A stretch of DNA of 64,000 nt from Spirochaetia bacterium (GCA_965198005.1 CBDAOI010000004.1:2016001-2080000), one strand, 5' to 3'. Counted from the first letter of the stretch, positions 8,073-62,968 are shown. The notes: generated from the letters alone by a model not told the origin. Made by a program: numbers and translations.

Positions 8073-8107
8073 GTAAAGGGAAACATTAACTAAGGAGGCA
8101 GAGAAGG

Positions 8108-35730: not shown

Positions 35731-35841
35731 TCCAGCCAGCCGCCGTTTCCAAACCGTGCCAAGCAGGGTTGCCAGCGCGTGCCAGCCTGTGATGCTGGTG
35801 TCCGCCAGCGGCGAACGCCAGCGGTGCCGGCTGTCGCGGTT

Positions 35842-38950: not shown

Positions 38951-39322
38951 AGGATGATCCAGCTTTTAGGTGGGGGTCACCGTTGTACCCGGAGTAAGTA
39001 CTGGCGGTGGCCCCTATCTTTTTTCGTGATCTCCGGAACGCTTCCCGGACGAACCTATCCTACCCCCACTGGCGGATTTGTCCACATCTCGGAAATCTCA
39101 CCTGGCGGGCAACACGCCTTGAAGGCATCGCGCGTTTCGAACACGCGAGCGTGGATCGCTGCCGGGTCGTGACCGCGGCGCCAAGGCTCTGACACTAGAA
39201 GCCTATCCCAGCCTACCACTACCACCGCCGCGTTGCCCGGCAGACTGACGCCCCGTCACCCGCGAATCAGCGACGCCGCCACGCGGCGTCCGCACTCAGC
39301 GTCGGTCTGCTATCATCACCGA

Positions 39323-42300
39323 GTGAAGCTGGAAGACCTGCAGGCCACCGCCACCGTGCGCGGCATCCTGGCCGATGCCGCGGTGAGCGTCGTCAGCGTG
39401 CGCTGGTTCGGGTCGCAGGCGCTGGAGCTGACCTACCGCACGGCGGGTGGCGAGCTGGGCAGCGAGATCCTCTACCGCGATGACGAAGCCCGGCTGGAGA
39501 TCGCCGAGCAGGGGCGCCCGTGGAGCTTCGATGGGGACGGGGAGCTGTTTCGGCTGGTGTCCGAGGCGCTGCGGATTCGCCTCGCGCACCTGTTCGATCC
39601 GGCGTTGGCGGTGCACACGTCGCTGGTGGAGCCGCTTCCCCACCAGATCACCGCGGTCTACGAGGCGATGCTGCCGCGCCAGCCGCTGCGCTTTCTGCTG
39701 GCCGACGATCCCGGCGCCGGTAAGACGATCATGGCCGGCCTGCTCATGAAGGAGCTGATTGCGCGCGGCGACCTGCAGCGCTGCCTGGTGGTGTGCCCCG
39801 GCAGCCTGGCGGAGCAGTGGCAGGATGAGCTGTACCGCCGTTTCCATCTGAACTTCGAGATCTTCACCAACGACAAGCTGGCCGCCGCCCGCACCGGCAA
39901 CTGGTTCCTGGAAGCCGACCTGGTGATCGCCCGCCTGGACAAGCTCGCGCGCGACGCCGAGCTGCAGGACAAGCTCCAGGCGCCCGACTGTCGCTGGGAC
40001 CTGATCGTCTGCGACGAGGCGCACAAGATGGCGGCCACCTTCACCGGCGGTGAGGTCAAGTACACCAAGCGCTACCGCCTGGGCCAACTGCTCGGACGCC
40101 TGACGCGCCACTTCCTGCTGCTCACCGCCACCCCGCACAACGGCAAGGAGGAGGACTTCCAACTGTTCATGGCGCTGCTGGACGGCGACCGCTTCGAGGG
40201 ACGGTTCCGCGACGGCGTCCACGTGGTGGATGTCTCCGACCTGATGCGGCGCATGGTGAAGGAGCGCCTGCTCAAGTTCGACGGCACGCCGCTGTTCCCC
40301 GAGCGCGTGGCCCACACCATCCCCTATCAACTCTCCACCGTAGAGGCGCACCTGTATCGGGCGGTCACCAGCTACGTGCGCGAGGAGTTCAACCGCGCTG
40401 AGGCGCTGGACAACAACAAGCGGGCGGGTACGGTGGGATTCGCCCTGACGCTGCTGCAGCGCCGCCTCGCCTCGTCACCGGAGGCGATTTACCAGTCGCT
40501 ACGGCGGCGGCGGCAGCGGCTGGAGAGTCGCCTGCGCGAGCTGGAACTGTTGCGTCGTGGTGATCAGGCGGCGGCTCGTGTCGCGCTGCCGCCCGGCGTC
40601 GAGTTGGACCCGGATGACATCGACGATCTGGAAGACGCGCCCGCCGGCGAGTGGGAGGAGACGGCCCAGCAGATCCTCGACCAGGCGACTGCGGCGCGCT
40701 CCAGTGCCGAGCTGAGAGCCGAGATCCGGACCCTGCGCCACGTCGAGCAGGTGGCGCTCGGCGTGCGGCGCAGCGGCAACGATGCCAAGTGGCGCGAGCT
40801 CGCGGGGCTCCTGGGCGAGATTTTCTCGCGTCGCGCCACGGGGCAGGCGGCGGCACCCGGGCACGGCCGCAAGCTGGTGATCTTCACCGAACACCGCGAC
40901 ACCCTCGACTATCTGCGCGGCCGTATCGCCACGGTACAGGGACGTGACCAAGCGGTGGTGGTGATCCACGGCGGCATGGGCCGCGAGGAGCGGATGAAAG
41001 CGCAGGAGGCGTTCCTGCACAACCGCGACGTGCAGATCCTGCTGGCTACCGACGCGGCGGGCGAGGGGATCAACCTGCAGCGCGCCCATCTGATGGTGAA
41101 CTACGACCTGCCGTGGAACCCGAACCGGCTCGAACAGCGTTTCGGCCGCATCCACCGCATCGGTCAAACCGAGGTGTGTCACCTGTGGAACCTGGTGGCG
41201 GATGAGACCCGCGAAGGCGATGTCTACCGGCGGCTGCTGGACAAGCTGGAGCAGGCGCGCCAGACCCTCGGCGGCCAGGTGTTCGACGTACTCGGCAAGC
41301 TGCAGTTCGGCGGCCGGCCGCTGCGCGACCTGCTGCTGGAGGCGATCCGTTATGGCGAGCAGCCGTCGGTCCGCGCGCGGCTCACCACTGCCCTGGAGCA
41401 CGCCCTCGACCGCGCCGCGCTACGGGACCTGCTGGAGGACCAAGCCCTGGCACCGGACGCCATGGACGCCACCCGCGTGCAGCGGGTGCGGGAGGAGCTG
41501 GAGCGCGCCGCGGCCCGGCGGCTGCAACCTCACTACGTCGAGTCGTTCTTCCGTGCGGCGTTTGCGCGCCTGGGCGGCTCGATTGGCCGGCGCGAGCCGC
41601 GCCGCTACGAGATCACCCACGTGCCCGGCGCGGTGCGCAATCGCGACCGGCTGATCGGTGTCGGCGAGCCGGTGTCGGCCCGCTATGAGCGCATCGCCTT
41701 CGACAAGGCTCTGGTGTCCCTGCCCGGCAAGCCGCAGGCAGCGTTCGTGTGCCCGGGCCACCCGCTGCTCGACGCGGTGCTCGACCTGACGCTGGAACGC
41801 CAGCGCGATCTGCTGAAACGGGGCACCGTGCTGGTCGACGAGGGTGACACGAGGTCTGCCCCGCGCGTGTTGTTCTACCTCGAACACGCCATCCAGGACG
41901 CGAGCCGGACGCGCACCGGCGAGCGGCGCGTGGTATCGAAACGCCTGCTCTATGTCGAGCTGGCGGAGTCCGGCGCGCCGTGCCACCTGCACTATGCGCC
42001 CTACCTCGACTATCGGCCGCTGACTCCCGAGGAACCGGCGGTTGCGGCAGTCATGGAGCGGCCCGAGTGTGCCTGGATCACCGGCGACCTGGAGCAGCGC
42101 GCCCTTGAACACGCCGTGACCGACGTCGTCCCCGAACACCTCGACGAAGTCCGCAACGCCAAGCTGGGACTCATCGCCAAGACCGAGGCCGCGGTAAAGG
42201 AGCGGCTCACCAAGGAGATCGCGTATTGGGATCATCGTGCCGCGCAGCTCCAGCTCCAGGAGCAGGCGGGTCGCACCGGCGCCCGGCTGGTCTCCGGCGA

Positions 42301-42862
42301 GGCGCGCCGCCGCGCCGACGAGCTGCAGGCACGGCTCCAGCAGCGGCTGCGGGCACTGAAGCTGGAGGCCCAACTCGCCCCGCTGCCGCCGGTCGTGCTG
42401 GGCGGGGTGCTGGTGATGCCGGCGGGTTTGATCGCGGCCATGGGCGGCCGGAAGACTGAGCCTTCGTCCCGCACCACGGCAGACACCCAGGAGGCCGCCG
42501 CTCGGGCGCGCGCCATCGTCATGGACACCGAGCGTGCCCTCGGCTTCGAACCCACCGACCGCGAATTCGAGCGCCTCGGCTACGACCTCGAGAGCCGCGT
42601 CCCCGGCACCGGCAAGCTGCGCTTCATCGAGGTCAAGGGCCGCATCCACGGCGCCGCCACCATCACCGTGACCCGCAACGAGGTTCTCTACTCGCTCAAC
42701 CAGCCCGACGACTACCGCCTCGCCATCGTCGAGTTCCTGGACGGCGACACCCACCGCGTCCACTACGTCCGCGCACCGTTCCGCCGCGAGCCGGACTTCG
42801 GCGTCACCAGCATCAACTACTCCTTCACCGACCTCCTCGCCCGCGCCGAGGCCCCATGCTGA
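39323..42862 (+). CDS. SNF2-family helicase with C-terminal DUF3883 nuclease-like domain
   Basis: LADDPGAGKT, DEAH, TATPH, ATDAAGEGINLQ, LEQRFGRIHRIG, GYDLES...FIEVKG; extended -10 TGcTATCAT just before GTG. Confidence 0.95.
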   Translation: MKLEDLQATATVRGILADAAVSVVSVRWFGSQALELTYRTAGGELGSEILYRDDEARLEIAEQGRPWSFDGDGELFRLVSEALRIRLAHLFDPALAVHTSLVEPLPHQITAVYEAMLPRQPLRFLLADDPGAGKTIMAGLLMKELIARGDLQRCLVVCPGSLAEQWQDELYRRFHLNFEIFTNDKLAAARTGNWFLEADLVIARLDKLARDAELQDKLQAPDCRWDLIVCDEAHKMAATFTGGEVKYTKRYRLGQLLGRLTRHFLLLTATPHNGKEEDFQLFMALLDGDRFEGRFRDGVHVVDVSDLMRRMVKERLLKFDGTPLFPERVAHTIPYQLSTVEAHLYRAVTSYVREEFNRAEALDNNKRAGTVGFALTLLQRRLASSPEAIYQSLRRRRQRLESRLRELELLRRGDQAAARVALPPGVELDPDDIDDLEDAPAGEWEETAQQILDQATAARSSAELRAEIRTLRHVEQVALGVRRSGNDAKWRELAGLLGEIFSRRATGQAAAPGHGRKLVIFTEHRDTLDYLRGRIATVQGRDQAVVVIHGGMGREERMKAQEAFLHNRDVQILLATDAAGEGINLQRAHLMVNYDLPWNPNRLEQRFGRIHRIGQTEVCHLWNLVADETREGDVYRRLLDKLEQARQTLGGQVFDVLGKLQFGGRPLRDLLLEAIRYGEQPSVRARLTTALEHALDRAALRDLLEDQALAPDAMDATRVQRVREELERAAARRLQPHYVESFFRAAFARLGGSIGRREPRRYEITHVPGAVRNRDRLIGVGEPVSARYERIAFDKALVSLPGKPQAAFVCPGHPLLDAVLDLTLERQRDLLKRGTVLVDEGDTRSAPRVLFYLEHAIQDASRTRTGERRVVSKRLLYVELAESGAPCHLHYAPYLDYRPLTPEEPAVAAVMERPECAWITGDLEQRALEHAVTDVVPEHLDEVRNAKLGLIAKTEAAVKERLTKEIAYWDHRAAQLQLQEQAGRTGARLVSGEARRRADELQARLQQRLRALKLEAQLAPLPPVVLGGVLVMPAGLIAAMGGRKTEPSSRTTADTQEAAARARAIVMDTERALGFEPTDREFERLGYDLESRVPGTGKLRFIEVKGRIHGAATITVTRNEVLYSLNQPDDYRLAIVEFLDGDTHRVHYVRAPFRREPDFGVTSINYSFTDLLARAEAPC

Positions 42863-43139
42863 CGCCCCCGTGCCCAGGGTACCCGTGCATGTGGCAGACA
42901 GGCGGTCAAGTAAGGCGTCGATCTGCTCGTCGAAAGATAGGTAACTCTATATTGCAGAGCCAATTAAAGTACAATAGATGGTGTCAAGTTCGGTGTCCTG
43001 CAACGCGCCAAGTTCCGAGATCGTTCCCGGTTGCGAGGCTGCCAACGGCGGGGCGACCACCGCGCACATCAGACGCCGCGCCACTTTGCCTTGACGGTGG
43101 GTGGCAATATACTCGAATACCTTCGAGGATGTGGAGCCG

Positions 43140-43370
43140 ATGAACGATAACGCGCGAGGAACGATCACGTACCTCGACGACGAAGAGCGTGATCTCATCA
43201 AGTGGATCGAAAACGAGGAGTGGGTTCCCGTAACTGATGTCGAAACAGTTAAAGAGCGGGCTCGTCGGCATGCGATCGCGACTATGCAGCAAGACAAGAG
43301 ACTCAACTCCGTGGGACTTGGTCCTAACCTGCCAACAGCACCAGTGTCACTCGATGGCCTCGATCGTTGA
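43140..43370 (+). pseudogene. CopG-like antitoxin remnant
   Basis: YLDDEERDLIKWIENEEW...QDKRLN resembles 6630-6926; C-terminus lost; RIPSR toxin trace upstream. Confidence 0.6.
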
Positions 43371-43439
43371 CATGGTTGACTCAAATTGTGGCGGCGTGAA
43401 ATGGTACAGACGATCCGGATCGCCGGCCAAGTGTGCAGC

Positions 43440-44477
43440 ATGACGACACCACAGCCCTCAGACAACCCTTGGATGCGCTCAACCTCGTTCGCCACGATGC
43501 TGCGCATACTGCACATAGCAGCTGCCTCACCGCATGGCCTGACGTCGAGAGAGATCGACTCGAAGCTACTGGAAACGTTACCCGCTGCCCGACGAAGCAT
43601 GCCTCCGGCAAGAACGACACTCTATCACCATCGTAACACGTTGCTCAAGCTTCAGGCACTGCAGCGACATGGATCCACAATACAACCTAACCGCAGCCAT
43701 CCAGCAGTGCAGAGACTACTGGGCCAGCACATTCTGGAAGATGGAGGACTTCACGAGACCGCTCAAGATCAGTTTGCAGATCTGGTGCTGAATAGCCCGG
43801 GGTGCCGGGAGCTGTTCTTTGATCTGTTTCTACCTCGTGGAGATAGCGAGTGCTTATCGGTGCGCGATTTTCGCTACTCTGGACTCCCGGTAATCTGGGT
43901 TAGGCAGGATTATGGCGGCACTGCCTCTGTGCTTCTGAGGAATGATGTAACGGGTCGCACTCTTCTTTGTGAATCGGAAGTGGCCATCAAGGCTGTACTC
44001 TACGGGTTGCGGTACTGGGCGCGAGATGAGCTCGCGCTCGTCGACGAGTACTCTCGGGTCGACGGAACCACCATTATGTTTCCGATCACTAGGGTTAGGT
44101 CGGTACGCTCAATGGTCCATCTGATACTCTCCCTCCGTCACCAAGCTGACGAGTGGACCCTATTCTCCGTGGTGGAACTGATCGAGAGATGCTGCGTGCG
44201 TAGACGCCACCCGATTGGGACCCTCTTCGAGGCTCTCAGGTGGCTTTCGAACGAATGGCATAGCCACGTTACGCTTATTCCGACCACATTCGCTCTTGCC
44301 ACGCTCGCCGCCCGATCTCCGGGAAGAGAGCAGCTTGAACTCCGACGATACTTTCGGAGAACTGATACCGACGCCTATGTGTCCCATGTACGAATCCACC
44401 GCGACATTCCGCTTGATCCGGAACAGGTGAAACATCCACATGTCTACGATACCGCCGCAGCTCCGGCTCACGTTTAA
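43440..44477 (+). CDS. Hypothetical protein, probable winged-HTH domains
   Basis: PHGLTSREID...RTTLYHHRNTLLKLQAL; overlaps the ATPase gene. Confidence 0.7.
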   Translation: MTTPQPSDNPWMRSTSFATMLRILHIAAASPHGLTSREIDSKLLETLPAARRSMPPARTTLYHHRNTLLKLQALQRHGSTIQPNRSHPAVQRLLGQHILEDGGLHETAQDQFADLVLNSPGCRELFFDLFLPRGDSECLSVRDFRYSGLPVIWVRQDYGGTASVLLRNDVTGRTLLCESEVAIKAVLYGLRYWARDELALVDEYSRVDGTTIMFPITRVRSVRSMVHLILSLRHQADEWTLFSVVELIERCCVRRRHPIGTLFEALRWLSNEWHSHVTLIPTTFALATLAARSPGREQLELRRYFRRTDTDAYVSHVRIHRDIPLDPEQVKHPHVYDTAAAPAHV

Positions 44478-45621
44478 CCCGTTCGAGCCGGTTGCGTCCG
44501 GCGCACCGCACGGCAGCGACCTGGCTCCTCCGTTCGGCATTGCAGATGAGGTCCACACGTTGCTCGGCGGGTACCAGTCGGCGCGTGGGGCCAAGGGTGC
44601 GACGATAGTAGGAGAGTATGGGACTGGAAAGACCTGCCTGCTGCATTGGCTGCAGCAGCAAGAGCTTCCGAAGAATCGCATCGTGCCGTTCTATTTTGAT
44701 AACCCAGGCGTACAGTTCTATGATCTTGCGAACGAGTTGCTGCGTCAGATAGGTCGGAAGGACTTTGCTAAGTTCGTGTGGGAACTCGCCAGTCCACATG
44801 TTGGAGATCATCAGCTTGATCTTTTCGAGCGCGGCTTCGAGGCATATGTTCGGGCGTCTCCCCAGCGCAAGCAACGCGCGGACATAACCGCCCAGCTACA
44901 GCAAGCGATCGCGCGGACGGAAGTAACATCTGACGATGAGATAGCATATTGTCTTGCTCGCCTCGTTACCGAGACGGTGAGCAAACCGTACTTCGAATAC
45001 CGTGATTTTGTACCGGCTAACGCCGCCAGCATCGTTGCCGAGCGCGAGGAAGCACGCTACTTCCGTGCGATACTGAAGACGATATCGTCCGGATTGAAAG
45101 CGACTGGTATAGCCTTCTTGATCGATGAGTTCGAGGAAATTGGACTACAGAAAAGGCTCGGCAGACGCGCGGCACATGATTACCTCGCAACGGTTAAGCG
45201 GTTGCTGAATATCGCTGCAGGAGGCGAACCAGCTTTCTGGCTTTTTTTGTCGATGACACCGGAGGCTCATGACACCAGTCGGGAGCTTGAGCCGGCGCTT
45301 TTCGAGCGACTTCAGGCAGGTCTGGAACTGCGGCCGCTGACTGGAAAGGCTGCGTTGGACCTCATGAGGAACAGGATACGCTCAGCTCGAGCGGGGGAGC
45401 GGGAGCACGGCAAGAGTCAGCTGTTCCCGTTCCCAGAGCGCGTTGACTTTCTCCGACCGACTACTTATTCGAACCCGCGCAGGTTGGTCAAGACCTGCTC
45501 GTTCGCGATCGCCGACTCGACTGCGAATACCGCGGTTCCGTTCACCGCTGAATATCTTCAGGCCGTAGAGACGAAACTGTATCCTACCGATTCTCCGAGC
45601 GTAGGGAATTCTGCATCGTGA
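44440..45621 (+). CDS. P-loop (AAA+/STAND-like) ATPase
   Basis: GEYGTGKT, FLIDEFEE, ALFERL, NPRRLV. Confidence 0.85.
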   Translation: MSTIPPQLRLTFNPFEPVASGAPHGSDLAPPFGIADEVHTLLGGYQSARGAKGATIVGEYGTGKTCLLHWLQQQELPKNRIVPFYFDNPGVQFYDLANELLRQIGRKDFAKFVWELASPHVGDHQLDLFERGFEAYVRASPQRKQRADITAQLQQAIARTEVTSDDEIAYCLARLVTETVSKPYFEYRDFVPANAASIVAEREEARYFRAILKTISSGLKATGIAFLIDEFEEIGLQKRLGRRAAHDYLATVKRLLNIAAGGEPAFWLFLSMTPEAHDTSRELEPALFERLQAGLELRPLTGKAALDLMRNRIRSARAGEREHGKSQLFPFPERVDFLRPTTYSNPRRLVKTCSFAIADSTANTAVPFTAEYLQAVETKLYPTDSPSVGNSAS

Positions 45622-46370
45622 GTCATGCTTCTTACCACTACAAGAAAGTGGCATTTCTGGACACGAACACAATTCACTACGTGCGACTCTGTTTGAGCTA
45701 CGCACAAGAGCGTGTCCTGCACCCGTTCGGTCCGGCATCGACAAGTAGCTGGGACGACCTTAATCCGAGCATCCGCACGTTGTCCAGAGGCCTTCGACAG
45801 CATCTTAAGATTGGAATCAAGGTCCTCCAGTTCCTCGAACACAGAGGTGTGGACGTCAAATACTCCCGGATCTCAGAGATCGAATTAATTGCCGGCATGA
45901 TTCGTGGCAAAGCAATTGAGAGCGCTGCTCGCGACGAGGTCCCGCACCGCATGCTGACCAGGATGCCGGAATCCGAAATCGCCGACCGAGTGAGCGAACA
46001 GGATCTGAGTCAGGTAGGCGCTGCCCTTGATGAACTCCCGTCGCTACTGGACGCGTTGAATATTACGATCACTGCGACGGACAGAAATAGGGAATCTGAT
46101 GTACTGGGACTCGCAGCGAGGATCGCCCGGTTGCGCTATCTCGAACCGGTGGATGTCGTCATCTACGCCGAGGCGGTGCTAGCTCAGGCCGACTACTTGA
46201 TTACCAGCGATGGCTATCTGCGTACGGTCACGAATGACATTCGAAACACCAAAAGGGCTCCGTTCGGCAATATCCGTACCCAGGTGATCCAAATCGCAGC
46301 AGATGCCCTACTCCAGGAACCCGGTAGTGTGATCCTGCCGGATGCACCAAAGAAGCTCGTTAGGAGCTGA
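45618..46370 (+). CDS. PIN-domain protein (250 aa)
   Basis: AFLDTNTI, SEIEL, DVVIYAEA, DYLITSD. Confidence 0.75.
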   Translation: MSHASYHYKKVAFLDTNTIHYVRLCLSYAQERVLHPFGPASTSSWDDLNPSIRTLSRGLRQHLKIGIKVLQFLEHRGVDVKYSRISEIELIAGMIRGKAIESAARDEVPHRMLTRMPESEIADRVSEQDLSQVGAALDELPSLLDALNITITATDRNRESDVLGLAARIARLRYLEPVDVVIYAEAVLAQADYLITSDGYLRTVTNDIRNTKRAPFGNIRTQVIQIAADALLQEPGSVILPDAPKKLVRS

Positions 46371-47601
46371 TCTCGACTTCAGCGTGGCATATCATGTCGT
46401 CGAATACCCGGCAGCGAGGCGTTGGGTAACACCTCAGACAGCCCGCGCACAACCGGTCCACCGATGGTACCTGTTCCCGCATAGTTTCACCGGCGATCTC
46501 GTGCACGCTCTCGTCGATGAATGGGGTCTGAGTAACCACGATCGGATTCTCGACCCGTTCGTTGGCGCAGGGACGACATTGGTCAGTGCCAGGGAGCGTA
46601 ACGTGTCAGCGTTTGGCTATGACATATCGCCACTTGCGGTTCTGATTGCTAACACCAAGACATCGAGATATTCCGAGGAGCGCCTCGCCACGTGCTGGCG
46701 CTCTCTCTTGGCATCTCAAGGCCTATTCGACGATAGGGTCTCCGTAGATGTTGCTGATTTGGTTCGTCGGGCGCTTCCCGACGGACGACTGGAGGCGTTT
46801 CAGTCTCTCCACAATTGCATCATGGAACTTGACGGTGCTTCGCCCGAACGCGACTTCTTTCGGCTGGCGTTGCTTGCCATACTCCCTCAATTCAGTGCGA
46901 CTGCTGCAAATGGAGGGTGGCTGCGATGGAGGGTGGCCGGTCTTCCTGCCGAGCAGGTCGTCCATGCGTTTGCCGAACGGGTAAGGATGATGCTGGCTGA
47001 AGTCGAGCATTACCGGCGACCAGTGACGGGCACTTGGAGCGCAGCCCTCGCCGATGCCCGCGACCTGCCGGATGCGGAGGCCACCTACTCGGCAGTCATC
47101 ACCTCGCCACCGTATCCTAACCGACACGACTACACTCGGGTCTTCGGTGTAGAGCTGATGTTCGCGTTCCTGAGCTCGGAGGAAACGCGACAACTTCGCC
47201 ATCGTAGTTTCCATTCTCATCCGGAAGCCCGTCCAAGTCGTGGTAATGCACCGGAGTACGACTCTCCACGGCGTCTGGAAAGGGACTTGCACCTGTTTGG
47301 CGACGCTCGGATCCAACGGATGCTGCGCGGGTATTTCCTGGATATGTATCTGTGCTTGCGCGAGATAAGGCGAGTATGTCGCGTCGGCGCCAGAATTGCC
47401 TTGGTAGTCGGCAACGTACGGTATAGAGGCCACCCGATCATGGTAGATGAGCTGACCGCTGAGGTTGGTGAGCAGGCCGGATTGAGCTGTCGTGAGATCC
47501 GTGTGGCACGATGGCGGGGGAACAGCGCGCAGCAGATGGGCCGGTTTGGCCGCACGGCATCGCGCGAGAGCCTGGTTGTGTTTGAGAACGACGGGGCGTA
47601 A
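46342..47601 (+). CDS. DNA amino-methyltransferase (alpha order, probably m4C)
   Basis: HRWYLFPHSF, ILDPFVGAGTT (motif I), VITSPPY (motif IV). Confidence 0.88.
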   Translation: MHQRSSLGADLDFSVAYHVVEYPAARRWVTPQTARAQPVHRWYLFPHSFTGDLVHALVDEWGLSNHDRILDPFVGAGTTLVSARERNVSAFGYDISPLAVLIANTKTSRYSEERLATCWRSLLASQGLFDDRVSVDVADLVRRALPDGRLEAFQSLHNCIMELDGASPERDFFRLALLAILPQFSATAANGGWLRWRVAGLPAEQVVHAFAERVRMMLAEVEHYRRPVTGTWSAALADARDLPDAEATYSAVITSPPYPNRHDYTRVFGVELMFAFLSSEETRQLRHRSFHSHPEARPSRGNAPEYDSPRRLERDLHLFGDARIQRMLRGYFLDMYLCLREIRRVCRVGARIALVVGNVRYRGHPIMVDELTAEVGEQAGLSCREIRVARWRGNSAQQMGRFGRTASRESLVVFENDGA

Positions 47602-47928
47602 CAAAGCGAAGCGGCTCTCGATGTCGTAGCCGAGGCGCTCGACTTGCGGGCGGTGGGCTCGAAGCCCGGGCTGCCTTCCATAGTCCTCTCGGTGCACGAG
47701 TCCGTTGCCGCGCTCTGGCCGGCGTCAGGCCGCAGCGGGGTGCAACGCGTGCGGCGCTCCGCGCCCGACCGCCGCAGCAGGGGGAGGGGCGAACGCATGT
47801 GCCATAGCCGCTGTGGGCCATTGCTCACCTGCGCGTTGCCATGCTCGTCGCAACACCCCCGTACGCCGGTCGTCTGTCACGCCACGTCGGTCGACTGGCT
47901 GCTCGGTGTGGCCAGGCCATTATATTAG

Positions 47929-47963
47929 TTTACAAACGATGGCCAGAGGTGCTATACTGTAAA
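47929..47963 (+). promoter_or_regulatory. Sigma70-type promoter with overlapping inverted repeat
   Basis: TTTACA-N18-TATACT; TTTACA...TGTAAA inverted pair; GAGGAGG RBS downstream. Confidence 0.6.
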
Positions 47964-47985
47964 TCGTCCGAGGAGGGGACCGGTC

Positions 47986-49080
47986 ATGGTTGGGAGAAGG
48001 CTCAAACTCGCTCGCGCGGCTACTGGGCTGTCCCTGCGCGGGCTGGAACGGCGAATCGGCGGCCGCGTGACGGCCCAGGCGATAGGAAAATATGAGCGCG
48101 ATGAATCGATGCCGAGTTCCGGGGTTCTCATTGCGTTGGTGGAAGCGCTGGGCGTATCCGTCGAGTACCTGGTGAGTGAGCAGCACCTTGTACTCGAAAC
48201 GGTCGAGTTCAGGAAGAAGACGATCTCGCGCAAACGCGACGAGGCGCGAGTGCAAGCCCGGGTGGTGGACATGATGGAGCGCTATCTTACCGTTGAGCAG
48301 GTACTTGCTCTACCGAGCGTCGCTTGGGCAAGGCCCCGTGAGGCGCCCTATCCCGTGGTCGGCGACCTGACGGGTGCCGAGCGAGCAGCCCGCAGCCTGC
48401 GCCGACACTGGGATCTTGGACGAAAACCGATCGCAAGCATGGTTGAGTTGCTGGAGGAGTCCGGTATCAAGGTTCTGGCATCCGAGCTCACCGACATTGC
48501 GGGCCTGACCGCGTACGCGCGTTTGGGTGATAGACAGGTCGAACCGTTTATCGTGCTAAACGGACAGCACTCGGGAGAGCGGCAACGTTTCACGCTGGCC
48601 CACGAACTCGGACACTTGGTGCTCGCCGTGGATGCCGACATCAATGCGGAGAAGGCGGCTCATCGCTTCGCAGCCGCCTTCCTCATGCCGCCCGACGCCC
48701 TGCGGATGGAGATCGGCGCCCGCCGCACCTCCATTGGATGGAGCGAGCTGCTCAGCCTGAAGCGCGTGTTCGGGGTCAGCGTGCAGGCACTCGTGTATCG
48801 CTGCCGCGACCTCGCCATCATCAGCGAGGCGTTGTACCGGCGCCTGTTTCGAGAAATGTCGCGGCTTGGCTGGAGAACCCCACCCTACACCGAGCCGCAC
48901 CCGATCCCAGTGGAGGAGCCCACCCGGTTCGTGCGGCTATGCCTGCGCGCCATGGCCGAGAACGTCATCTCCGAGCGCAAGGCCGCCGAGTTGCTTGATA
49001 TGTCGGTCCACGATTTGAACCGTAGTATCGCGACGCCCCCTGAGGTAGTGGACGCCGTCCGAGCAATGGTAGGGACTTGA
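47986..49080 (+). CDS. XRE HTH + ImmA/IrrE metallopeptidase
   Basis: GRRLKLAR...AIGKYE; RQRFTLAHELGH; EKAAHRFAAAFLMP. Confidence 0.92.
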   Translation: MVGRRLKLARAATGLSLRGLERRIGGRVTAQAIGKYERDESMPSSGVLIALVEALGVSVEYLVSEQHLVLETVEFRKKTISRKRDEARVQARVVDMMERYLTVEQVLALPSVAWARPREAPYPVVGDLTGAERAARSLRRHWDLGRKPIASMVELLEESGIKVLASELTDIAGLTAYARLGDRQVEPFIVLNGQHSGERQRFTLAHELGHLVLAVDADINAEKAAHRFAAAFLMPPDALRMEIGARRTSIGWSELLSLKRVFGVSVQALVYRCRDLAIISEALYRRLFREMSRLGWRTPPYTEPHPIPVEEPTRFVRLCLRAMAENVISERKAAELLDMSVHDLNRSIATPPEVVDAVRAMVGT

Positions 49081-49147
49081 TGACTATCCGTTCGCAGATT
49101 ATCGAACCGACGTTGCTCGTCCACCTGGTATACCTTGGAACTCGCCA

Positions 49148-50704
49148 ATGAAACAGAGCAAAGACAGTATCAGTCAACAAGCAATAGAATGGTCGATACT
49201 GCACCTTCAAAAGCACGGCGACACGGATATTTTTCCAAAGCCATTTGAGTACACAGCAGTGGGAGATCAGGCCATCCGTGAACATGTAGCGAAAGTTGAT
49301 CTCGCATGTTACAAGACGAGAGATGCGCGGATGATTCTCGTGCCGAAAGCGGGATATGGGTTTCGTGTGAGCCATCAGCTCGATCCTATCGACTCAATCG
49401 TCTACACGGCATCAGTATATGAGATCAGCAAAGATATTGAGCGTTGGAGAGTACCAGTCGACGAGCGTATTGCATGTTCCTATCGGATACAACCTACGGA
49501 CGATGGTGATTTCTTCCCGCGTGATAACGGATGGTCAAGCTACTACGAGCAGTCCTCCATGCTCGCCAATATTCATCGATACGTTCTGCACATCGACGTT
49601 GCCGCATTCTATAACCAGATCTATCATCACCGACTTCAAGGAGCGCTTGACGAAGCTGGAATATCTCTAGAACGGTCGAAGAACATTGAACGATTCCTAG
49701 GTAGTTTAACGGCAAGACAGTCTCAGGGTATACCGATCGGTCCTGCAGCGTCTCATGTTCTCGCGGAAGCATGCTTGAACGACGTGGACCGATCTCTGAA
49801 GGATAAGGGATACAACTTCACGCGCTATGTCGATAATATCCGGATGTTTTTTAGCGATCGACGGACATCCTGGAATGCGCTGCATCATGTTACTCAGTAT
49901 CTCTACACGGCTCACCGGTTATCCATTCAGGACTCGAAGACACAATTCGAGGCAGCGACGGAGTTCAAGTCGGAACGATTGGAAGATCCGCAATTCCGGG
50001 AAGATCAACAGAAGGAGCGAGCACTAGACGATCTCATTAGCGAGATGCGGGAGGCGAGCGGATACGAGGACATCGGGATTCACGATCTGGGAGAAGATGC
50101 TGACAAGGAGTTGCGCAGGGTCTTGGAGGAGCTGTTTCGCGAGGCGATTGATCATACACCGGTGAAGTTTGGCATGATACGACACGTGCTGCGCAGAGCG
50201 AAGTCGATGCGATCGCGTGTGCTGCATCCTGGAGTGCTTGAGAAACTCGAGAGCCTCATTCCCGTTTTTCGTGACGTTTGTCTCTATCTTATGCACACCT
50301 TGCCCACCGATCAATGTCGGGCACGCGAAGTGGGTGACAGGCTACTCGAGATCGCGTGCCGGTCGGATTGGTCCTGTGCATTTGTTCAGCTCTGGGTGCT
50401 TCACGTACTACAGGAGAAGCCGCGTGCGGCGAGGTATGAGGATGCTGTCAAACTTGCTCGTTCAGCGGAGAGCGAGTTGGGAATCAGGCCGATGGCGCTG
50501 CTCGCGCGGGCCTTCAAGAAGACCCACTGGGTACGTGGCAAAAAGGAGACCGTGATGGCTTTGTCGCCATGGGATCGACGAGCGGTAATCTACGCGGGAC
50601 AGATTCTCCCTGCCAAGGAGAAGAAGATCTGGTTGAATATGATCAAGGAGAAGGGAGATCATTTGGATATAGCGGTGGCTAACTGCCTGCTGTCTTCGAG
50701 CTAG
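49148..50704 (+). CDS. Reverse transcriptase, UG/Abi (DRT-like) type with helical C-terminal domain
   Basis: VPK..GFR..QLDPID, IDVAAFYNQIYHH, GIPIGPAASHVLAE, RYVDNI, SKT. Confidence 0.88.
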   Translation: MKQSKDSISQQAIEWSILHLQKHGDTDIFPKPFEYTAVGDQAIREHVAKVDLACYKTRDARMILVPKAGYGFRVSHQLDPIDSIVYTASVYEISKDIERWRVPVDERIACSYRIQPTDDGDFFPRDNGWSSYYEQSSMLANIHRYVLHIDVAAFYNQIYHHRLQGALDEAGISLERSKNIERFLGSLTARQSQGIPIGPAASHVLAEACLNDVDRSLKDKGYNFTRYVDNIRMFFSDRRTSWNALHHVTQYLYTAHRLSIQDSKTQFEAATEFKSERLEDPQFREDQQKERALDDLISEMREASGYEDIGIHDLGEDADKELRRVLEELFREAIDHTPVKFGMIRHVLRRAKSMRSRVLHPGVLEKLESLIPVFRDVCLYLMHTLPTDQCRAREVGDRLLEIACRSDWSCAFVQLWVLHVLQEKPRAARYEDAVKLARSAESELGIRPMALLARAFKKTHWVRGKKETVMALSPWDRRAVIYAGQILPAKEKKIWLNMIKEKGDHLDIAVANCLLSSS

Positions 50705-50793
50705 GTGAGTGCTGACTACTTTGGATGGGTATTGCAGAGTCTTGCTTGTGTTAAAGCGCTTAGCCGTACCCGACGGCTGGCGCGGCGGATACG

Positions 50794-53687
<2,894 letters not shown>

Positions 53688-53691
<4 letters not shown>

Positions 53692-56393
53692 GTGCTGCCT
53701 GGAACTGGCCCGGCTCACGCTGGTGGCGCGTTGATCTGCATGCGCATTCGCCGGCGTCGCACGACTTCGGCACCCAGCCGGACCGTGATCGTCCAGATTG
53801 GGTGCGCTGGATCACCGCCGCACGGGACGCCGGGCTGCACGCCGTCGCGGTGACCGATCATAACACGGCAGCGGCGGTCTCAGATCTCCAACATGCCGCT
53901 CAGCAGGTGGATGGGAGTCCGGTGCTGTTCCCCGGCGTCGAGGTTACGTCCAGCGACGGCGTACACATTATCCTTCTGGTGGACCCGGGTCAGTCGCAAC
54001 AGCACGTCGACGACTTGCTGTCAAGGGCGGACATCAGTGTGGCGAAGCGGGGTGACGAGACCGCCCGTTCACCGCTGAGCATCGAGCAAATCATAGCTGC
54101 ATGCGCGGATGATGCGCTGATCATCGCTCCGCACATCAACCGGCCGAGTGGGTTGCTTGAGCATGATGGTCAGCAGCGCATCGCAGAGTTGGGGGATGCC
54201 CGCCTGGCAGCGGTCGAGGTGGATCCCGAGGTGAGTATCGACGACTCCTGGATCGATGGGAGCAAACCTGAGATCGGGCGCCGTATCCCCCAGGTATGGA
54301 ATTCCGATGCCCACGCTTTCGATCAGTTGGGCCGACGCTGTACCTGGGTCAAGATGACCAAACCGGATGTCGGAGGTCTGAGGCTGGCCCTGCTCGACGG
54401 TGAAGACTCAGTCCAACGTGCGGTAGCGGAAGGAGCACCCGACCCGAACACGCACGCCGCAGCGGCCATCGAAGCCGTAACGGTACGAGATGCGAAGTAT
54501 CTCGGTCGATCCCGACCGTGGCCCGTGACGTTCAACCCTTGGCTCAACGCAATCATTGGCGGACGCGGGACCGGCAAGTCGACGCTCGTGGACTTCTGTC
54601 GTGCGGCCCTTCGGCGCGACGCTGAGCTCCGCGATCACGCTGAGTTGCGTGACGCGTTACAACTAAGGCTGCGGGTCCCTCCCGAACGTGGCAAAGAGGG
54701 CCTCCTGACAGACCGAACGACGATTGAGCTGATCTACCGGAAAGATGGGGAGCGTTTCGCCCTTTCCTGGAGTCTCGATGGATCCGTCATAGCAATCGAG
54801 CGCTGTGACGGGGAGCAACGGATTCCCGAGGAGGGCGACATCCGCGAGCGGTTTCCGGTACGTATCTACAGCCAAAAACAACTATTCGAAGTTGCCCGTA
54901 ACCCGAATGCATTGCTCGCGGTGATCGACGATAGTGCGGAGGTCAAGGGAACTCATCTGCACCGGCATCGGGACGAAGTCGCCGCCCGCTACATGGCACT
55001 CCGAGCGGAGGCGCGCGCGCTACGGGCTGAAGCGGCTGACCTCCCCGCGCGCAGAGCCGCGCTTGCCGATGTGCGGAGGAAACTAAACGTGCTTCAAACT
55101 GGGAGCCACGAGTCGGTCATGAAGACCTATCGGAAGTACCACCGCTACGACGGCGCTTGGCAGTCGATCCAGAAGGATATTCGCGAGGCGGTTGCCGAGA
55201 TCGGTCGTATGGTCGAGGACCTTGCGGTCGCAGATTTGGAGTGGGAAGAAACCAACGAAGACGACCCGGCAACGGCCGCACTGCGGAACGCGCACGAAGA
55301 ACTCGGCCGGACGGTTGGCGCTCTCCAACAAGGCCTGCGGGCGGCCGTAGCGCTTGCTGAGCACCAACTCAAGGGGCTCGAAGGAAGTGCGGATGTGAAC
55401 ACTTGGCGCCAGGCGGTAAACGCAAGCACGTCACACTACGAGCTCGTTTCGTTGAATCTTGAGGCGGCGGGTATCGCCAATCCGGCGGAATACCGCACGT
55501 TGCTTGATGAGGCAGCCGCTCTTAAACAAGAAACTGTGCATCGAACTCAGCAAGATACCGTGGCAGAGCAGCGAGAAGAAGACGCAGCGGCCGTACTCAA
55601 GGAGTACCGCTCGCTGTGTGTCGAATTGAGCCGGAGGCGCGAGCGATTCGCGGCCCTGACCTCCAGCGACCTGGTGCGTATTGAGATCGATGCTGCCGGC
55701 CAGCGCAGCTATCTTGAGGAGTTTCTGCGCGAGACCTTGGGGATCGAGCGATTCGATAGAGACTACACGGAGCTGGCGCAGCGGATCCAACCCAACGGCG
55801 GGCAGAGTTGGACTTGGGAGGCTCTGGATACCGTTGTCGACAAGCTGCGTTCGTTGGTAGCGGGAGTCGATCCAAGGTGGCCCGTACGGGATCGTCGGTT
55901 TTTGAATGCTCTGCAGCGGCTCCAGCCGGAGCGGCTAGACCGACTGGCGCTCTACCTGCCGGAAGACGCCGTCACGGTGAGCTTTCGCGACCAGCGTCAA
56001 CCGGGAGCGCCGTGGCGGCCTCTCGCGCAAGGATCACCGGGGCAGCAAACTGCGGCCCTGCTGGCGTTCGTACTGGGGTACGGTGACGAGCCGATCATCC
56101 TGGATCAGCCCGAGGACGACCTGGACAATTCCTTCATCTACGAACTGCTCGTGCGTCGACTGCGGGAACAGAAGCTCCAGCGGCAAGTCATCGTCGTGAC
56201 GCACAACCCCAACATCGTCGTACATGGAGATGCGGAACTCGTCGTGTCGTTGGAGACACGCTGCGGAGAGACTCACATCGTCTGTTTGGGCGGCCTGCAG
56301 GAGCGCGCGGTACGAGACGAGATCTGTCGGGTGATGGAAGGTGGACGAGAAGCGTTTCTCAGTCGCTATCGGCGTATCATCCCCGGCGATTAG
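53688..56393 (+). CDS. PHP phosphoesterase + ABC/SMC-type ATPase (Ppl/TrlF-like)
   Basis: DLHAHSP, VTDHN, GVEV, NSDAH; GGRGTGKS, GSPGQ, ILDQPED, VTHN. Confidence 0.9.
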
Positions 56394-56400
56394 GCCACCG

Positions 56401-57618
56401 ATGACCGACACCGACCTGCTCCGACAGATCCGACTCGGCGAAGATGGACGGGTAGAGTTCAAGCAGGTGTTCTTCTCCGGAGATCGAGTGACGAATCCGA
56501 CCAGGAACGCGCTCGCCAATGAGCTGGCCGGGCTGGCCAACGGACGTGGCGGCACCCTGCTCCTGGGAGTTCATGACAAGACCAAAGAGATTCTTGGCAT
56601 ACCGCTGCCGCGTGTCGACACCGCAGAAGGCTGGGTGCGCGAGATTTGCAACGACTCGATCAAGCCGCCGCTTGACGCCGATATTCGCAAGATCGAGCTG
56701 CCAAATGATGACGGCGACCTGGTGCCGATCATTCGCGTCGACGTGCCACGCAGCCTGTTCGTACACGAGAGCCCTGGCGGATACTTCCGCCGCATCGGGA
56801 GTTCGCACCGCAAGCTTCCGGCGGAGGCACTGGCGCGGCTGTTTCAAGAGCGCAGTCAAAGCCGCGTGATCCGCTTCGACGAGTCGATCGTGCCGAGGGC
56901 TGCTGCCCGCGACGTGGATGACCAGTTGTCCCAGCGTTTCCTGCGGGACGACGTCGCGGCGACGGAGGACACGCTACGCAAGCTGCGTATCGTGAGCGAC
57001 GACCTGGACGGTGTTCCACGGCTGACGCTCGCAGGAGCGCTCATGTGCACGCTCGATCCGCAGCAATGGCTGCCGCACGCGCAGATTCAGGCCGTGAGCT
57101 ACGCCGGCGAACGGTATGATGTGAACTACCAGAACGACGCCCGCGACCTGAATGGGCCGCTCGACGCCCAGGTCGCCGAGGCGCTCCACTTCGTGCGCCG
57201 CAACATGCTGGTCCGCGCTACCAAGCTGACCGGGCGTACCGAGCGCCCTCAGTTCAGCGAGCGGGCGGTGTTCGAGGCGCTGGTGAACGCCGTGGCACAC
57301 CGGGATTACTCGATAGCAGGGGCGAGGATTCGTTTGCATTTGTTCGGGAATCGACTCGAACTCTACGTTCCGGGCGGTCTCGCCAACACGCTCACACCCG
57401 ACAGCTTGCATCTGCGGCAGGCCAGCCGTAACGAACTGATCGTGTCGCTGCTTGCCCGCTGCCCCGCGCCCGAGGGAGTCGGACGCTCGCACCTCATGGA
57501 CCGGCGTGGCGATGGTGTTCCCATCATCCTGCGTGAGAGTCGGGCGCTGTCGGGTCGACTGCCGGAGTACACGCTGATCGACGACAGCGAGCTGCGGCTC
57601 GTCATCTGGGCGGCGTAG
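56401..57618 (+). CDS. AlbA_2 (Schlafen-like) + HATPase_c_4 protein
   Basis: GEDGRVEFK, LANGRGGTLLLGV, EALVNAVAHRDY, RNELI. Confidence 0.88.
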   Translation: MTDTDLLRQIRLGEDGRVEFKQVFFSGDRVTNPTRNALANELAGLANGRGGTLLLGVHDKTKEILGIPLPRVDTAEGWVREICNDSIKPPLDADIRKIELPNDDGDLVPIIRVDVPRSLFVHESPGGYFRRIGSSHRKLPAEALARLFQERSQSRVIRFDESIVPRAAARDVDDQLSQRFLRDDVAATEDTLRKLRIVSDDLDGVPRLTLAGALMCTLDPQQWLPHAQIQAVSYAGERYDVNYQNDARDLNGPLDAQVAEALHFVRRNMLVRATKLTGRTERPQFSERAVFEALVNAVAHRDYSIAGARIRLHLFGNRLELYVPGGLANTLTPDSLHLRQASRNELIVSLLARCPAPEGVGRSHLMDRRGDGVPIILRESRALSGRLPEYTLIDDSELRLVIWAA

Positions 57619-57630
57619 AATGGAGCGGTC

Positions 57631-58165
57631 ATGTCGCTGATTGCCAGGGAACTGCGCGAGGTATGGAACGCGCTGCGCGCCAGCAGCCGTCACCGGGACG
57701 ACGCGCTGTCCGAGGTCCGCATCAGGAAGCTGCGCGGCATCCGGGATGCCCAGCAGCCTGTTCCCGAACTTCAGCAATCGCCAGGAGGATGTGCTCTCGG
57801 ATACGGTGCAACGGACGGAGCTCGAGTTTCACTATCTCCACCAGGGCGATCGGCTGTCCATGGCTTGGCGGCGGAGCAAGAGCTGGAATCGCAGTTTCAT
57901 GGGCCGCAAGGGAGACTACGCTCCGCGTCTCGGCCTCACGCCAGCCGACATGGAACGCAAGATGCGCGACCTGGAGCAATTGGTCGGAGGGGCGGTACAG
58001 CAGCGTGACTTGGCCAAGACCGCCTTGAGCACCTTCGCAGCCGATCTCGACCGCACCGTGGCGGAGATCGCTCGGATTGTTGGCCAGCGGGAAGCGGAGC
58101 GAAACGCGATTCCGGAGCTCCTGGTGGACCTGAAAGAGCAGGTCAGCGCATGGAGACGACTGTAA
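57631..58165 (+). pseudogene. Heavily deleted ABC-type ATPase/nuclease-like gene
   Basis: LSEVRIRKLRGIRD start with the Walker A region missing; frameshift. Confidence 0.5.
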
Positions 58166-58186
58166 AACGGACGACCAAGGATTGAC

Positions 58187-61100: not shown

Positions 61101-61486
61101 TCATGCTCCCGGACGCCCACTCTCCAGGACTGCTCGTCAAGCCCGAGGTGGCACGGCAGCAGCTCGACGAGGAAGTGCCTCTGCCCCCGGGACCTGATCC
61201 ACGCCCGGGACCCGACCCGCCCCCACCGCCGCCTCCATCACCAAAGCCGACGCTGAAGCGCTACCACGGCTCCGTAACCCTCGACACCGCCCGCGTCGGG
61301 CTCTCGGCCAGTCAGATTGCCGAGGAAGTGATCGCCCACCTCAACGGCCTTCCGGGAGCGCAGGTCACGGTGACGCTGGACATCCAGGCCGACATCCCCG
61401 AGGGCGCGCCGGATCACGTCGTGCGCACGGTTACCGAGAACAGCCGCACGCTCAGGTTCACAGATCTGGGATTCGAGCCGGAGTAG
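58187..61486 (+). CDS. Swt1-HEPN + DUF499 ATPase
   Basis: RNKWAH, PWREVVTPH, EFAADL, TNFGGGKTH, LIDEW, YPIHPE. Confidence 0.95.
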   Translation: MAVTNHERVGKGLELLRSGLGPFVERELKRAVQARELDDYRLREIAGDPSLRRGSAEWDVAMLLKLMWEMWNEVFRTILGRSDRSLVSELREHRNKWAHQELFSSDDAYRVLDSAQRLLTSVSAPQVQEIDTLKQELLRVRYQEQVRGEQRKKGRTTVADGAVAGLKPWREVVTPHQDVASGRYQQAEFAADLWQIYLGQGTAEYRDPVEFFRRTYLTDSLRAMLTGAVQRLAGLGSDPVVQLQTNFGGGKTHSMLALYHLFSGTPPTSLAGIDGVLKAADAGELPAVRRVVLVGNRISPGNPVTKDDGTVVRTLWGELAWQLGGKEAFARLAADDENATSPGDRLRELLIEHGPCLILIDEWVAYARQLHDQSDLPAGSFETQFTFAQALTESAKLAGNCLLVISLPASDADESPHTQADDAEVGGQRGREALDRLRNVIGRIESSWRPATAEESFEIVRRRLFQPFNDPAQFTARDVVARGFSELYGAQQQEFPRECREGDYEKRIKAAYPIHPEVFNRLYTDWSALAKFQRTRGVLRLMAAVIHSLWEKGDSSPLILPASVAIDDVRVQSELTRYLDDNWTPIIEKDVDGAGSLPMRIDAEQPNLGKFAAARRVARAIFLGSAPTTAAAHRGIDDRRVKLGCVMPGETPAVFGDALRRLATVATYLYEDSARYWYDTQPTVTKLAEDRAEQLLRSRDRVAHEIATHTRAKLREAGDFSRVHPFPQSGQDVPDDLDTRLVVLDPEHPYTRGGVSPAETQAQAIFESRGNAPRIYRNTLVFLAADATRLQELDQAVRRLLAWESIVGEKEQLNLAPHQVRQADTQREAAATEMVSRIPETYRWLLVPGQATPQSEVTWDALNLTGSDSLAVRAANKLKSQEGLVTGYAASLLRMELDRVPLWRQNHVSVAQLVEDFARYLYLPRLRDPQVLLGSITDGVSSMTWEQDGFAFADSYDEAKGRYPNLRTSQQIMLPDAHSPGLLVKPEVARQQLDEEVPLPPGPDPRPGPDPPPPPPPSPKPTLKRYHGSVTLDTARVGLSASQIAEEVIAHLNGLPGAQVTVTLDIQADIPEGAPDHVVRTVTENSRTLRFTDLGFEPE

Positions 61487-62923: not shown

Positions 62924-62968
62924 CGGCGCCGGCGGCCGGCTGCTACTGTGGGCGGGAGGAGTACGTCA

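Follow-up and report, generated by a model that had tools for sequence, protein, structure and literature searches.

Can a reverse transcriptase (RT) whose catalytic YxDD motif reads YVDN serve as a working defense enzyme, and what might keep it in check? This question is raised by a 64,000-nucleotide (nt) stretch of Spirochaetia bacterium DNA (GCA_965198005.1 CBDAOI010000004.1:2016001-2080000). The entire stretch is called the window here, and all coordinates are counted from its first nucleotide unless another contig is named. The region of interest, 47929-50704, is a two-gene cassette with its own promoter that is located inside an Hma (DUF499/DUF1156, BREX-related) defense locus. Its first gene (47986-49080, plus strand) encodes a 364-amino-acid (aa) protein that joins an XRE-type helix-turn-helix (HTH) domain to an M78 zinc-peptidase domain. 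The second gene (49148-50704, plus strand) encodes a 518-aa RT. In the reading that we favor, the XRE-M78 protein is an RmrA-type antitoxin/regulator that restrains an imported UG7/DRT8 effector occupying the PIN slot of the Hma locus, and infection would release the RT to arrest growth. The probability of this reading is roughly 0.6.

The RT carries the sequences IDVAAFY (motif A, with D150), GIPIGP and RYVDNI, and it matches Pfam RVT_1 (E 1.4e-11). Among PADLOC models, it is matched best by Drt8 (PDLC03783; E 3.8e-136, 453 bits), with residues 8-513 aligned to positions 2-488 of the 493 in the profile. The runner-up model, RT_UG21, reaches E 1.7e-44. Related RTs (P0002, P0007 and those of loci L001, L015 and L021) match Drt8 similarly. 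These matches assign the RT to the class 1 UG/Abi group UG7, which is also named DRT8 (PMC9226505). In NCBIfam, the protein reaches the cut-off of no model; for Drt4, the score is 73.7 bits and the cut-off 450. The RT is rare among relatives of the host: surveys of 61 and 401 genomes, both including the window's own, detected it in 2 and 3, respectively.

An AlphaFold2 model of the RT, built on 75 sequences, has a mean predicted local distance difference test score of 93.8. The chain that follows the RT domain is all-helical in this model from about residue 238 to 517, giving the class 1 architecture of an RT domain with a C-terminal alpha-helical repeat domain. The predicted fold is DRT6/DRT4/AbiK-like. 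Its top Foldseek match is DRT6 (9wy8; E 1.5e-14, template modeling (TM) score 0.63), followed by DRT4/UG15, AbiK, Abi-P2 and AbiA. A preliminary description of this DNA had reported a 518-aa RT with the three motifs and a helical C-terminus and had taken it for a defense-type UG/Abi enzyme. The open reading frame (ORF), the structure model and the Drt8 and class 1 matches bear this out. The same description considered the UG group unassignable, a view that the Drt8 match overturns. It also held that scoring as a described stand-alone DRT would speak against its proposal, and the RT itself does prove to be of a known kind.

The codons GAT AAT at 49832-49837 (plus strand) specify D229 and N230, so that the last Asp of YxDD is indeed Asn, as first described. 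UG7/DRT8 enzymes have a catalytic YxDD; here D150 and D229 are present, and the motif reads YVDN. Among the query and 120 relatives, the motif C column contains 114 Asp and 7 Asn, and 34 further relatives all have DD. Besides the window RT, the Asn is carried by P0002, P0003, P0007, P0009, P0067 and P0105, which read Y[AVI]DN. On a tree of 46 rows (quick search, LG+G4), all seven YxDN proteins fall in one 14-row clade (SH-aLRT 84) whose remaining seven rows are YxDD. No fewer than two changes are needed on this tree, and none of 500 shuffles was as clustered. The preliminary description had asked whether homologs keep YVDN. Within this single clade some do, for a total of 7 of 155 family proteins with YxDN, whereas the other 148 have Asp at position 230.

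One trivial explanation would be a sequencing or assembly error, or else a private recent mutation. A single transition from GAT to AAT suffices to produce the Asn codon, and the genome assembly consists of four contigs and is 90% complete. However, contigs spanning 47900-50800 from three runs in three studies show 0 or 1 differences from the window, none of them at 49835, and read AAT throughout; these are contigs at a depth of 2.9-10.5 rather than raw reads, and one is possibly the window's own source. Moreover, the six other YxDN proteins come from other assemblies. The contigs from three studies and these six proteins rule out the 'one-base error' that had been suggested, and explanations of this kind are extremely improbable.

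The four full-length YxDN proteins retain 20 of 20 family-invariant residues, including D150 and D229. N230 aside, the full-length proteins depart from the consensus at 0-2 of 57 nearly invariant columns, and they are 56-63% identical to the window RT. Because the Asn form is restricted to one clade, keeps the invariant residues and appears as AAT in contigs from three studies, it seems to be under selection. On this evidence, a small UG7 clade has inherited the Asn and kept it under selection. The 'recent inactivation' proposed earlier does not agree with a clade of YxDN proteins that keep their invariant residues.

A different alternative is that an RT with YVDN cannot polymerize at all. Such a protein might be a scaffold or sensor, might have another activity such as a DRT4-like RNase, or might be the product of a gene heading to decay. 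Mutation of either Asp of YXDD leaves the RTs of HIV-1 and MoMLV inactive (PMC554778), and DRT8 defense is reported to require the RT catalytic residues (PMC9226505). The Asn could therefore abolish polymerization, and retention of the second Asp by almost the entire family is in keeping with this view. Decay is hinted at by the fragmentary state of 3 of the 7 YxDN proteins, of which P0067 and P0105 also have scrambled ends. However, the conservation of the full-length proteins makes decay unlikely. YVDN is also described as a lineage trait of intact nematode belpaovirus elements (PMC554778, PMC9094657), which we count in favor of activity; these were the only YxDN-type RT motifs found in the literature.

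The RNase version of this alternative has its own evidence. The RNase dyad of DRT4, H160/D192 (10.64898/2026.10.21.760695), falls on H161 (49628-49630) and E181 (49688-49690) of the window RT in a HMMER alignment that was read by hand. Conservation within the UG7 family is 90% or more at each of these two residues. Prokaryotic RTs often have a histidine at the place of H161, behind motif A, so H161 is weak evidence for an RNase site and serves as a lead only. Furthermore, the RNase of DRT4 is described as dependent on DNA synthesis. Taken as a whole, an RT that does not polymerize is unlikely, and YVDN most likely represents a catalytic site that is altered but not abolished.

The second part of the question concerns the gene upstream. 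In the 364-aa protein, Pfam places HTH_3 at residues 6-62 (E 1.6e-11) and Peptidase_M78 at residues 157-273 (E 3.8e-19), and HELGH occupies residues 206-210. The PADLOC RmrA model matches residues 4-348 over positions 5-333 of its 363-position profile (E 7.8e-64), and 14 RmrA models match. The capP model also matches (E 6.5e-19), covering residues 131-275 only, and the nearest solved relatives include CapP (7t5t) and IrrE. The protein thus has the pairing of an HTH with an HExxH zinc peptidase that characterizes RosmerTA antitoxins.

Another characteristic of RosmerTA, an adjacent toxin gene that varies among homologs, is seen as well. Of 401 genomes searched in the class, 21 contain homologs of the XRE-M78 protein. 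At 15 further homolog loci, the co-oriented downstream ORF encodes MazF/PemK (5), PIN (1), NYN (1) or a NERD-kinase (1), and has no recognized toxin family at the other 7. Because PIN genes follow the orthologs in related Hma loci (see below) and MazF, PIN, NYN or NERD genes follow more distant homologs, the XRE-M78 gene is best classified as an antitoxin/regulator of the RosmerTA type (RmrA) whose effector slot is swappable.

Other copies and variants of this gene were encountered. Contigs from three of four runs (X3, X4 and X10) have a T>G difference at 48547 within it, and the fourth (X1) equals the window. Outside the window but in the same genome, contig C1:308824-309498 holds a partial second copy that is 69% identical over residues 133-357 and has two internal stops. 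In genome G006 (L141:3128-5985), an intact ortholog (71% identical) is flanked by short HmaA and HmaC fragments only. The Hma locus of G006 has thus decayed, with the regulator gene surviving.

The history of the slot can be read from related Hma loci. The closest XRE-M78 orthologs, which are 71-73% identical, intact and retain HELGH, come from four genomes that share the genus or family of the window's genome (G001, G009, G015 and G011). In all four, the gene lies between orthologous HmaA and HmaB, 5' of HmaB and co-oriented with it. A PIN gene is located directly behind the XRE-M78 gene. Its intact copies in G009 and G015 score 26.2 and 29.3 bits with Pfam PIN, which has a cut-off of 23.6. 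By eye, no more than a PIN-like start was recognized in G001, without a full-length ORF. In G011 (L139:17473-18774, minus strand), a DUF433/DUF5615 pair sits among fragments of the PIN gene and looks like a toxin-antitoxin pair inserted into the toxin gene. The RT is absent from all four genomes. The Hma locus of G009 (L127:1501-3684) also includes a second XRE-M78 paralog (60% identical, a 508-aa ORF) followed by a NYN-domain gene, and hence has two tandem regulator-plus-nuclease cassettes between HmaA and HmaB.

Comparison of the window with these four genomes by blastn defines the exchanged segment. Homology begins at 47986 with 72-74% identity and stops at 49013-49040. It resumes at 50806-50809 with 84-85% identity, and nothing matches between these breakpoints. 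A segment of 49040-50806 (plus strand) therefore lacks DNA homology to the related loci. No PIN remnant was found in the window; the best tblastn match (E 0.54) is at an unrelated place. The RT gene has a GC content of 51.6%, compared with 63.0% for the XRE-M78 gene and 63.5% for HmaB. The PIN genes (62.7-65.6% GC) are like their hosts. The homology gap, the low GC content relative to the flanks and the absence of an RT from the four relatives together indicate that the RT gene was imported horizontally in place of PIN. The XRE-M78 gene is a resident of the Hma locus of this lineage, with a downstream slot that normally holds a PIN toxin, and replacement of a resident PIN cassette by an imported RT cassette is the simplest reading.

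Relatives of the RT give some indication that UG7 enzymes are toxin-like. Several carry antitoxin-type domains at their N-termini. HicB is fused to P0002 and P0008 (55.7 and 67.9 bits) and, by precomputed Pfam annotation, to P0003, and only the first part of the HicB-bearing extension is found on P0004 and P0005. The HicB fusion occurs on both YADN and YADD forms. BrnA/CopG antitoxin domains are found on P0045 and P0082. DUF4926 is found above the cut-off on P0010, at 28.1 bits and thus below the 29.1-bit cut-off on P0018, and by precomputed Pfam annotation on P0019. These HicB, BrnA and DUF4926 fusions support the view of a UG7 RT as an effector that resembles a toxin and is kept in check by an antitoxin-type module, which in the window would be supplied in trans.

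Other relatives reside inside larger defense systems. Drt8-type RTs with YxDD are present within DISARM (DrmD-DrmMI-[Drt8]-DrmA-DrmB, L015:141-12534) and within BREX (PglX-[Drt8]-BrxC, L021:3710-13373). In L060, a Drt8-like RT match lies just 5' of HmaC- and HmaB-like genes; no intact ORF was recovered there, and the locus was read without a PADLOC scan. UG7 RTs are thus recurrent cargo of larger defense loci. When the window proteins were compared by tblastn with 82 loci, Hma-like genes were detected at L060 only, plus a weak HmaA match in L067. No XRE-M78 homolog was found near any other UG7 RT in these 82 loci, and blastp clustering of RT neighbors gave tiny clusters only.

In a search for genomic contexts of the YxDN relatives, the sole locus of the close clade in genome contigs was L001, which has YADD. 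Metagenome contigs contributed 21 loci, none more than 51% identical to the RT, and viral contigs contained no RT locus. The best plasmid match is 31.6% identical. A protein search with P0002 as the query returned no further member of the close clade.

Putative control elements are found upstream of the first gene of the cassette. Four sigma-70-like promoter sites occur in 47300-51100, where shuffled sequence gives a mean of 1.7. The best of them (47929-47958, plus strand) reads TTTACA-18-TATACT, has a TG extension and matches at 10 of 12 positions. It forms an AT-rich patch within a GC-rich spacer, with the ATG 28 nt downstream. A terminator-like hairpin (47908-47920, plus strand) just 5' of this promoter is the sole such site in 47300-51100, and none lies between the RT and HmaB. 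The 11-mer TTTACAGTATA (47953-47963, minus strand) overlaps the -10 element, and a TTTACA half-site occupies 47929-47934 on the plus strand. With up to one mismatch allowed, TTTACAGTATA has a single match in the window (chance expectation 0.02). G009, G015 and G011 also carry it 5' of their XRE-M78 orthologs, and G001 has TTTACA there. A single occurrence in the window and conservation 5' of the orthologs make TTTACAGTATA a likely operator.

The data show the family and fold of the RT, the arrangement of the locus, the cassette swap and the conservation of the Asn; repression, induction, polymerase activity and toxicity are steps that we infer from these features. The XRE-M78 protein would bind TTTACAGTATA over its own -10 element and keep expression of the cassette low, probably also limiting read-through into hmaB. 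It may, in addition, hold the RT effector in check. Phage infection or DNA damage would activate the M78 peptidase and relieve this control, as in ImmA/ImmR, IrrE/DdrO and CapP/CapH. The RT, like DRT4, DRT6 and AbiK, would then make protein-primed, untemplated single-stranded DNA (ssDNA), leading to growth arrest or abortive infection. The preliminary description's proposal of an inducible abortive-infection module that backs up the restriction-like core is likewise plausible.

Several observations weigh against this proposal. The neighborhoods of UG7 RTs were surveyed at 101 loci of genome and metagenome origin, which encode relatives no more than 59% identical to the RT and are distinct from the contigs of the six YxDN relatives (P0002, P0003, P0007, P0009, P0067 and P0105). 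None of the 54 adjacent co-oriented ORFs upstream, and none of the 47 downstream, encoded an HTH or M78 domain. UG7 RTs therefore work without such a partner, and the conserved XRE-ImmA neighbor that the preliminary description had thought worth seeking is not a UG7 feature. The RTs inside the DISARM and BREX loci likewise sit bare. The XRE-M78 and RT pair is seen in this genome only, and no direct evidence links the two. By eye, no obvious Shine-Dalgarno sequence precedes the start of the RT. N230 aside, no column separates the YxDN rows from their nearest YxDD relatives, and thus no compensating residue accompanies the Asn; the retroviral and DRT8 mutants mentioned above belong on this side as well. 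Finally, the XRE-M78 gene is always 5' of hmaB with no terminator-like site between them, and could just regulate Hma. A predicted complex of the XRE-M78 protein with the RT gave ipSAE values of 0.00 and 0.00 without controls, which argues neither for nor against binding.

The last of these objections leads to a possible, though less favored, explanation. The XRE-M78 protein could act solely to gate transcription of the Hma genes downstream, as a fused analog of CapH+CapP, and the RT could be an independent, stand-alone DRT8 of the partner-less UG7 variant that happened to land in a permissive intergenic slot. All five Hma loci of the lineage, window included, have the XRE-M78 gene at the same place 5' of hmaB, and the window has no terminator-like site from 47986 to hmaB. 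The protein matches capP and has CapP among its nearest solved relatives, and CapP+CapH are described as regulators of immune operons (10.64898/2026.05.16.725639). The partner-free UG7 RTs also fit this explanation, and no associated gene is reported for 165 UG7 members (PMC9226505). However, toxin-family genes directly behind 8 of 15 non-Hma homologs are the signature of an antitoxin rather than of an operon regulator. The match to RmrA is far stronger than that to capP, and the breakpoints of the swap coincide exactly with the PIN cassette. A gating function is, in any case, compatible with restraint of the RT by the XRE-M78 protein and not its opposite.

Restraint of an imported RT by a resident antitoxin-type regulator can be extended to the entire family, although this generalization is quite doubtful. 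UG7/DRT8 RTs might be toxin-like effectors under antitoxin-type control that is either fused (HicB, BrnA or DUF4926) or supplied in trans (RmrA-type XRE-M78). The YxDN clade would be functional, with a weakened second metal ligand that retunes DNA synthesis; Mn2+ dependence, a dNTP threshold or product length may be what is retuned. Because CapP-type M78 peptidases are switched on by ssDNA, DNA made by the RT could also activate the peptidase of its neighbor, creating a self-amplifying switch inside the Hma locus.

What is already known here is the RT group, UG7/DRT8, and the embedding of defense genes in Hma. A selected YxDN motif, and an RT in a RosmerTA-type toxin slot in place of PIN, are unreported in the main texts of the sources compared. 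No pair of an RT with an M78 antitoxin was found in the literature, as judged by titles and the starts of abstracts. A natural Asp-to-Asn catalytic variant under selection can show whether full polymerase activity is needed. An RT in a RosmerTA-type slot, together with the HicB and BrnA fusions, argues that the RT is a toxic effector and suggests how it is restrained. In addition, a clean cassette exchange with known breakpoints, at a fixed slot of an Hma/BREX-related locus, bears on how embedded defenses are swapped and co-regulated. If no functional reading holds, what is left is an ordinary DRT8 embedded in Hma.

The frame around the cassette is a complete set of Hma genes on the plus strand, each matched by its PADLOC model at E 0, which confirms that the RT is nested in a DUF499/DUF1156 system as first described. 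HmaA (39233-42862; 1658.9 bits) is an SNF2 helicase. HmaB (50794-53691) is a 965-aa DUF1156 methylase (Pfam DUF1156 E 2.4e-32). HmaC (58187-61486) combines, by Pfam, HEPN_Swt1 (E 9.3e-33) with a DUF499 ATPase (E 9.1e-28). The start of HmaB is 90 nt past the RT stop, and the spacers flanking the RT are 68 and 90 nt long. The XRE-M78, RT and HmaB genes are all on the plus strand, and the co-oriented order of promoter/operator, XRE-HELGH gene, RT and DUF1156 methylase is just as the preliminary description gave it. That description also saw no retron or array noncoding RNA (ncRNA) beside the RT. In agreement with this, no Rfam match at E <= 1 exists in 43000-58500, a scan that an undescribed RNA could escape, and the adjacent structured ncRNA of retrons and class 2 DRTs was not seen. 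Scans of the spacer for direct and inverted repeats gave short, weak pairs only, and a tRNA scan found no tRNA genes in the window.

Six cargo genes lie between hmaA and hmaB. Four of them, at 43386-47601 between HmaA and the XRE-M78 gene, form a low-GC module (54.6-58.7%). They encode a 363-aa protein without assignment, an AAA_22 ATPase with a weak BrxC/BrxD match, a 250-aa protein without assignment and a type II-like methyltransferase. In G001, homologs of the first and last genes of this module are found behind a truncated second XRE-M78 copy, and the module may be a further cargo cassette with a regulator of this type at its head.

Additional genes separate HmaB from HmaC. A protein with PHP and ABC-type ATPase domains is encoded at 53688-56393 (NCBIfam TrlF E 8.7e-160, above cut-off; PADLOC Ppl E 1.2e-111), and the start of its gene overlaps the HmaB stop. 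At 56341-58165, a gene for a Schlafen AlbA_2 and HATPase_c_4 protein is followed by a 174-aa ORF without assignment, just before HmaC. Both have homologs at the same place in G001, and pieces of the 174-aa ORF and of the Schlafen gene are present in G015 and G011, respectively. To the left of the island, a DDE transposase-like ORF and an AAA_22 ORF are located at 34487-36346 (minus strand), and ordinary genes resume to its right with YebC/TACO1 at 62948-63715. Elsewhere in the window, which has 63% GC, the content dips to 49.8% at 8001-10000, where ORFs for an NAD-dependent epimerase and an HpcH/HpaI aldolase are found.

The closest known system is DRT8 itself. Mestre et al. (2022; PMC9226505) describe UG7 as a class 1 UG/Abi RT with a C-terminal alpha-repeat domain. 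A PD-(D/E)XK 'cluster 17' partner accompanies variant 1 only, 150 of their 385 members, and the members without an associated gene form a partner-less variant. UG7 protected Escherichia coli from T5, and mutating the catalytic domain of the RT abolished protection. A 2026 overview (PMC13213688) calls the mechanism of DRT8 'not yet established'. The RT in the window shares with DRT8 a full-length Drt8 match, an RT core with a helical C-terminal domain, the class 1 fold and a defense-island context. In contrast, its motif C is YVDN instead of YxDD. The validated system needs PD-(D/E)XK, whereas none is seen beside this RT, whose neighbors are XRE-M78 and HmaB (the other ORFs of the island were not compared with cluster 17); the layout fits the partner-less variant. 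An RmrA-type neighbor is not reported for UG7 in the main text of PMC9226505, which has no occurrence of 'XRE' and no antitoxin passage on UG7.

Structural similarity to other class 1 enzymes extends beyond sequence similarity. DRT6 (UG12), DRT4 (UG15) and AbiK are the best structural matches (TM 0.57-0.63 for DRT6 and DRT4) and share the RT plus alpha-repeat architecture. However, sequence identity is just 13-18%, and all three have YxDD. Class 1 enzymes are described as carrying out protein-primed, untemplated DNA synthesis, and the ssDNA product of DRT4 as recruiting phage SSB-like proteins and switching on an RNase (10.64898/2026.10.21.760695, 10.64898/2026.10.27.754916). For motif C, the parallel is with nematode Belpaoviridae (Cer7-13 and Atlas), in which the same lineage-wide change from YXDD to YVDN occurs in otherwise intact RTs (PMC554778, PMC9094657). 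Those enzymes, however, are unrelated RTs of eukaryotic long terminal repeat elements, and the activity of their YVDN form is stated there to be undetermined.

Payne et al. (10.1101/2024.01.29.577857) report co-oriented cargo among hma genes in 62.7% of systems, and DUF499-centered BREX-related systems of type 1 are described with HEPN-DUF499 fusions (PMC12839542). HmaA, HmaB and HmaC are all present in the window, and HmaC carries the HEPN fusion of type 1. The six cargo genes between hmaA and hmaB exceed the three that Payne et al. allowed at most. Their main text does not contain 'reverse transcriptase', 'RosmerTA' or 'XRE' and mentions 'DRT' once, as an embedded DRT type III. The main text of PMC12839542 does not contain 'reverse transcriptase', 'ImmA' or 'M78'.

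RosmerTA systems pair a zinc-peptidase antitoxin with diverse toxins (Millman, 10.1101/2022.05.11.491447; NetFlax, PMC10440598), and NetFlax reports PIN partners at its Xre-COG2856/ImmA antitoxin hub. The XRE-M78 protein has the same HTH and zinc-peptidase composition, a full-length RmrA match and a variable downstream effector. In contrast to the small toxins of RosmerTA, the effector in the window is a 518-aa RT for which toxicity is proposed, and no RmrT model is among the best 25 of its 82 PADLOC matches. Regulation by CapP+CapH, ImmA/ImmR and IrrE/DdrO follows the same logic of an M78 peptidase with an XRE-HTH. Unlike the two-protein CapH+CapP arrangement, the XRE-M78 gene unites both domains in one 364-aa polypeptide.

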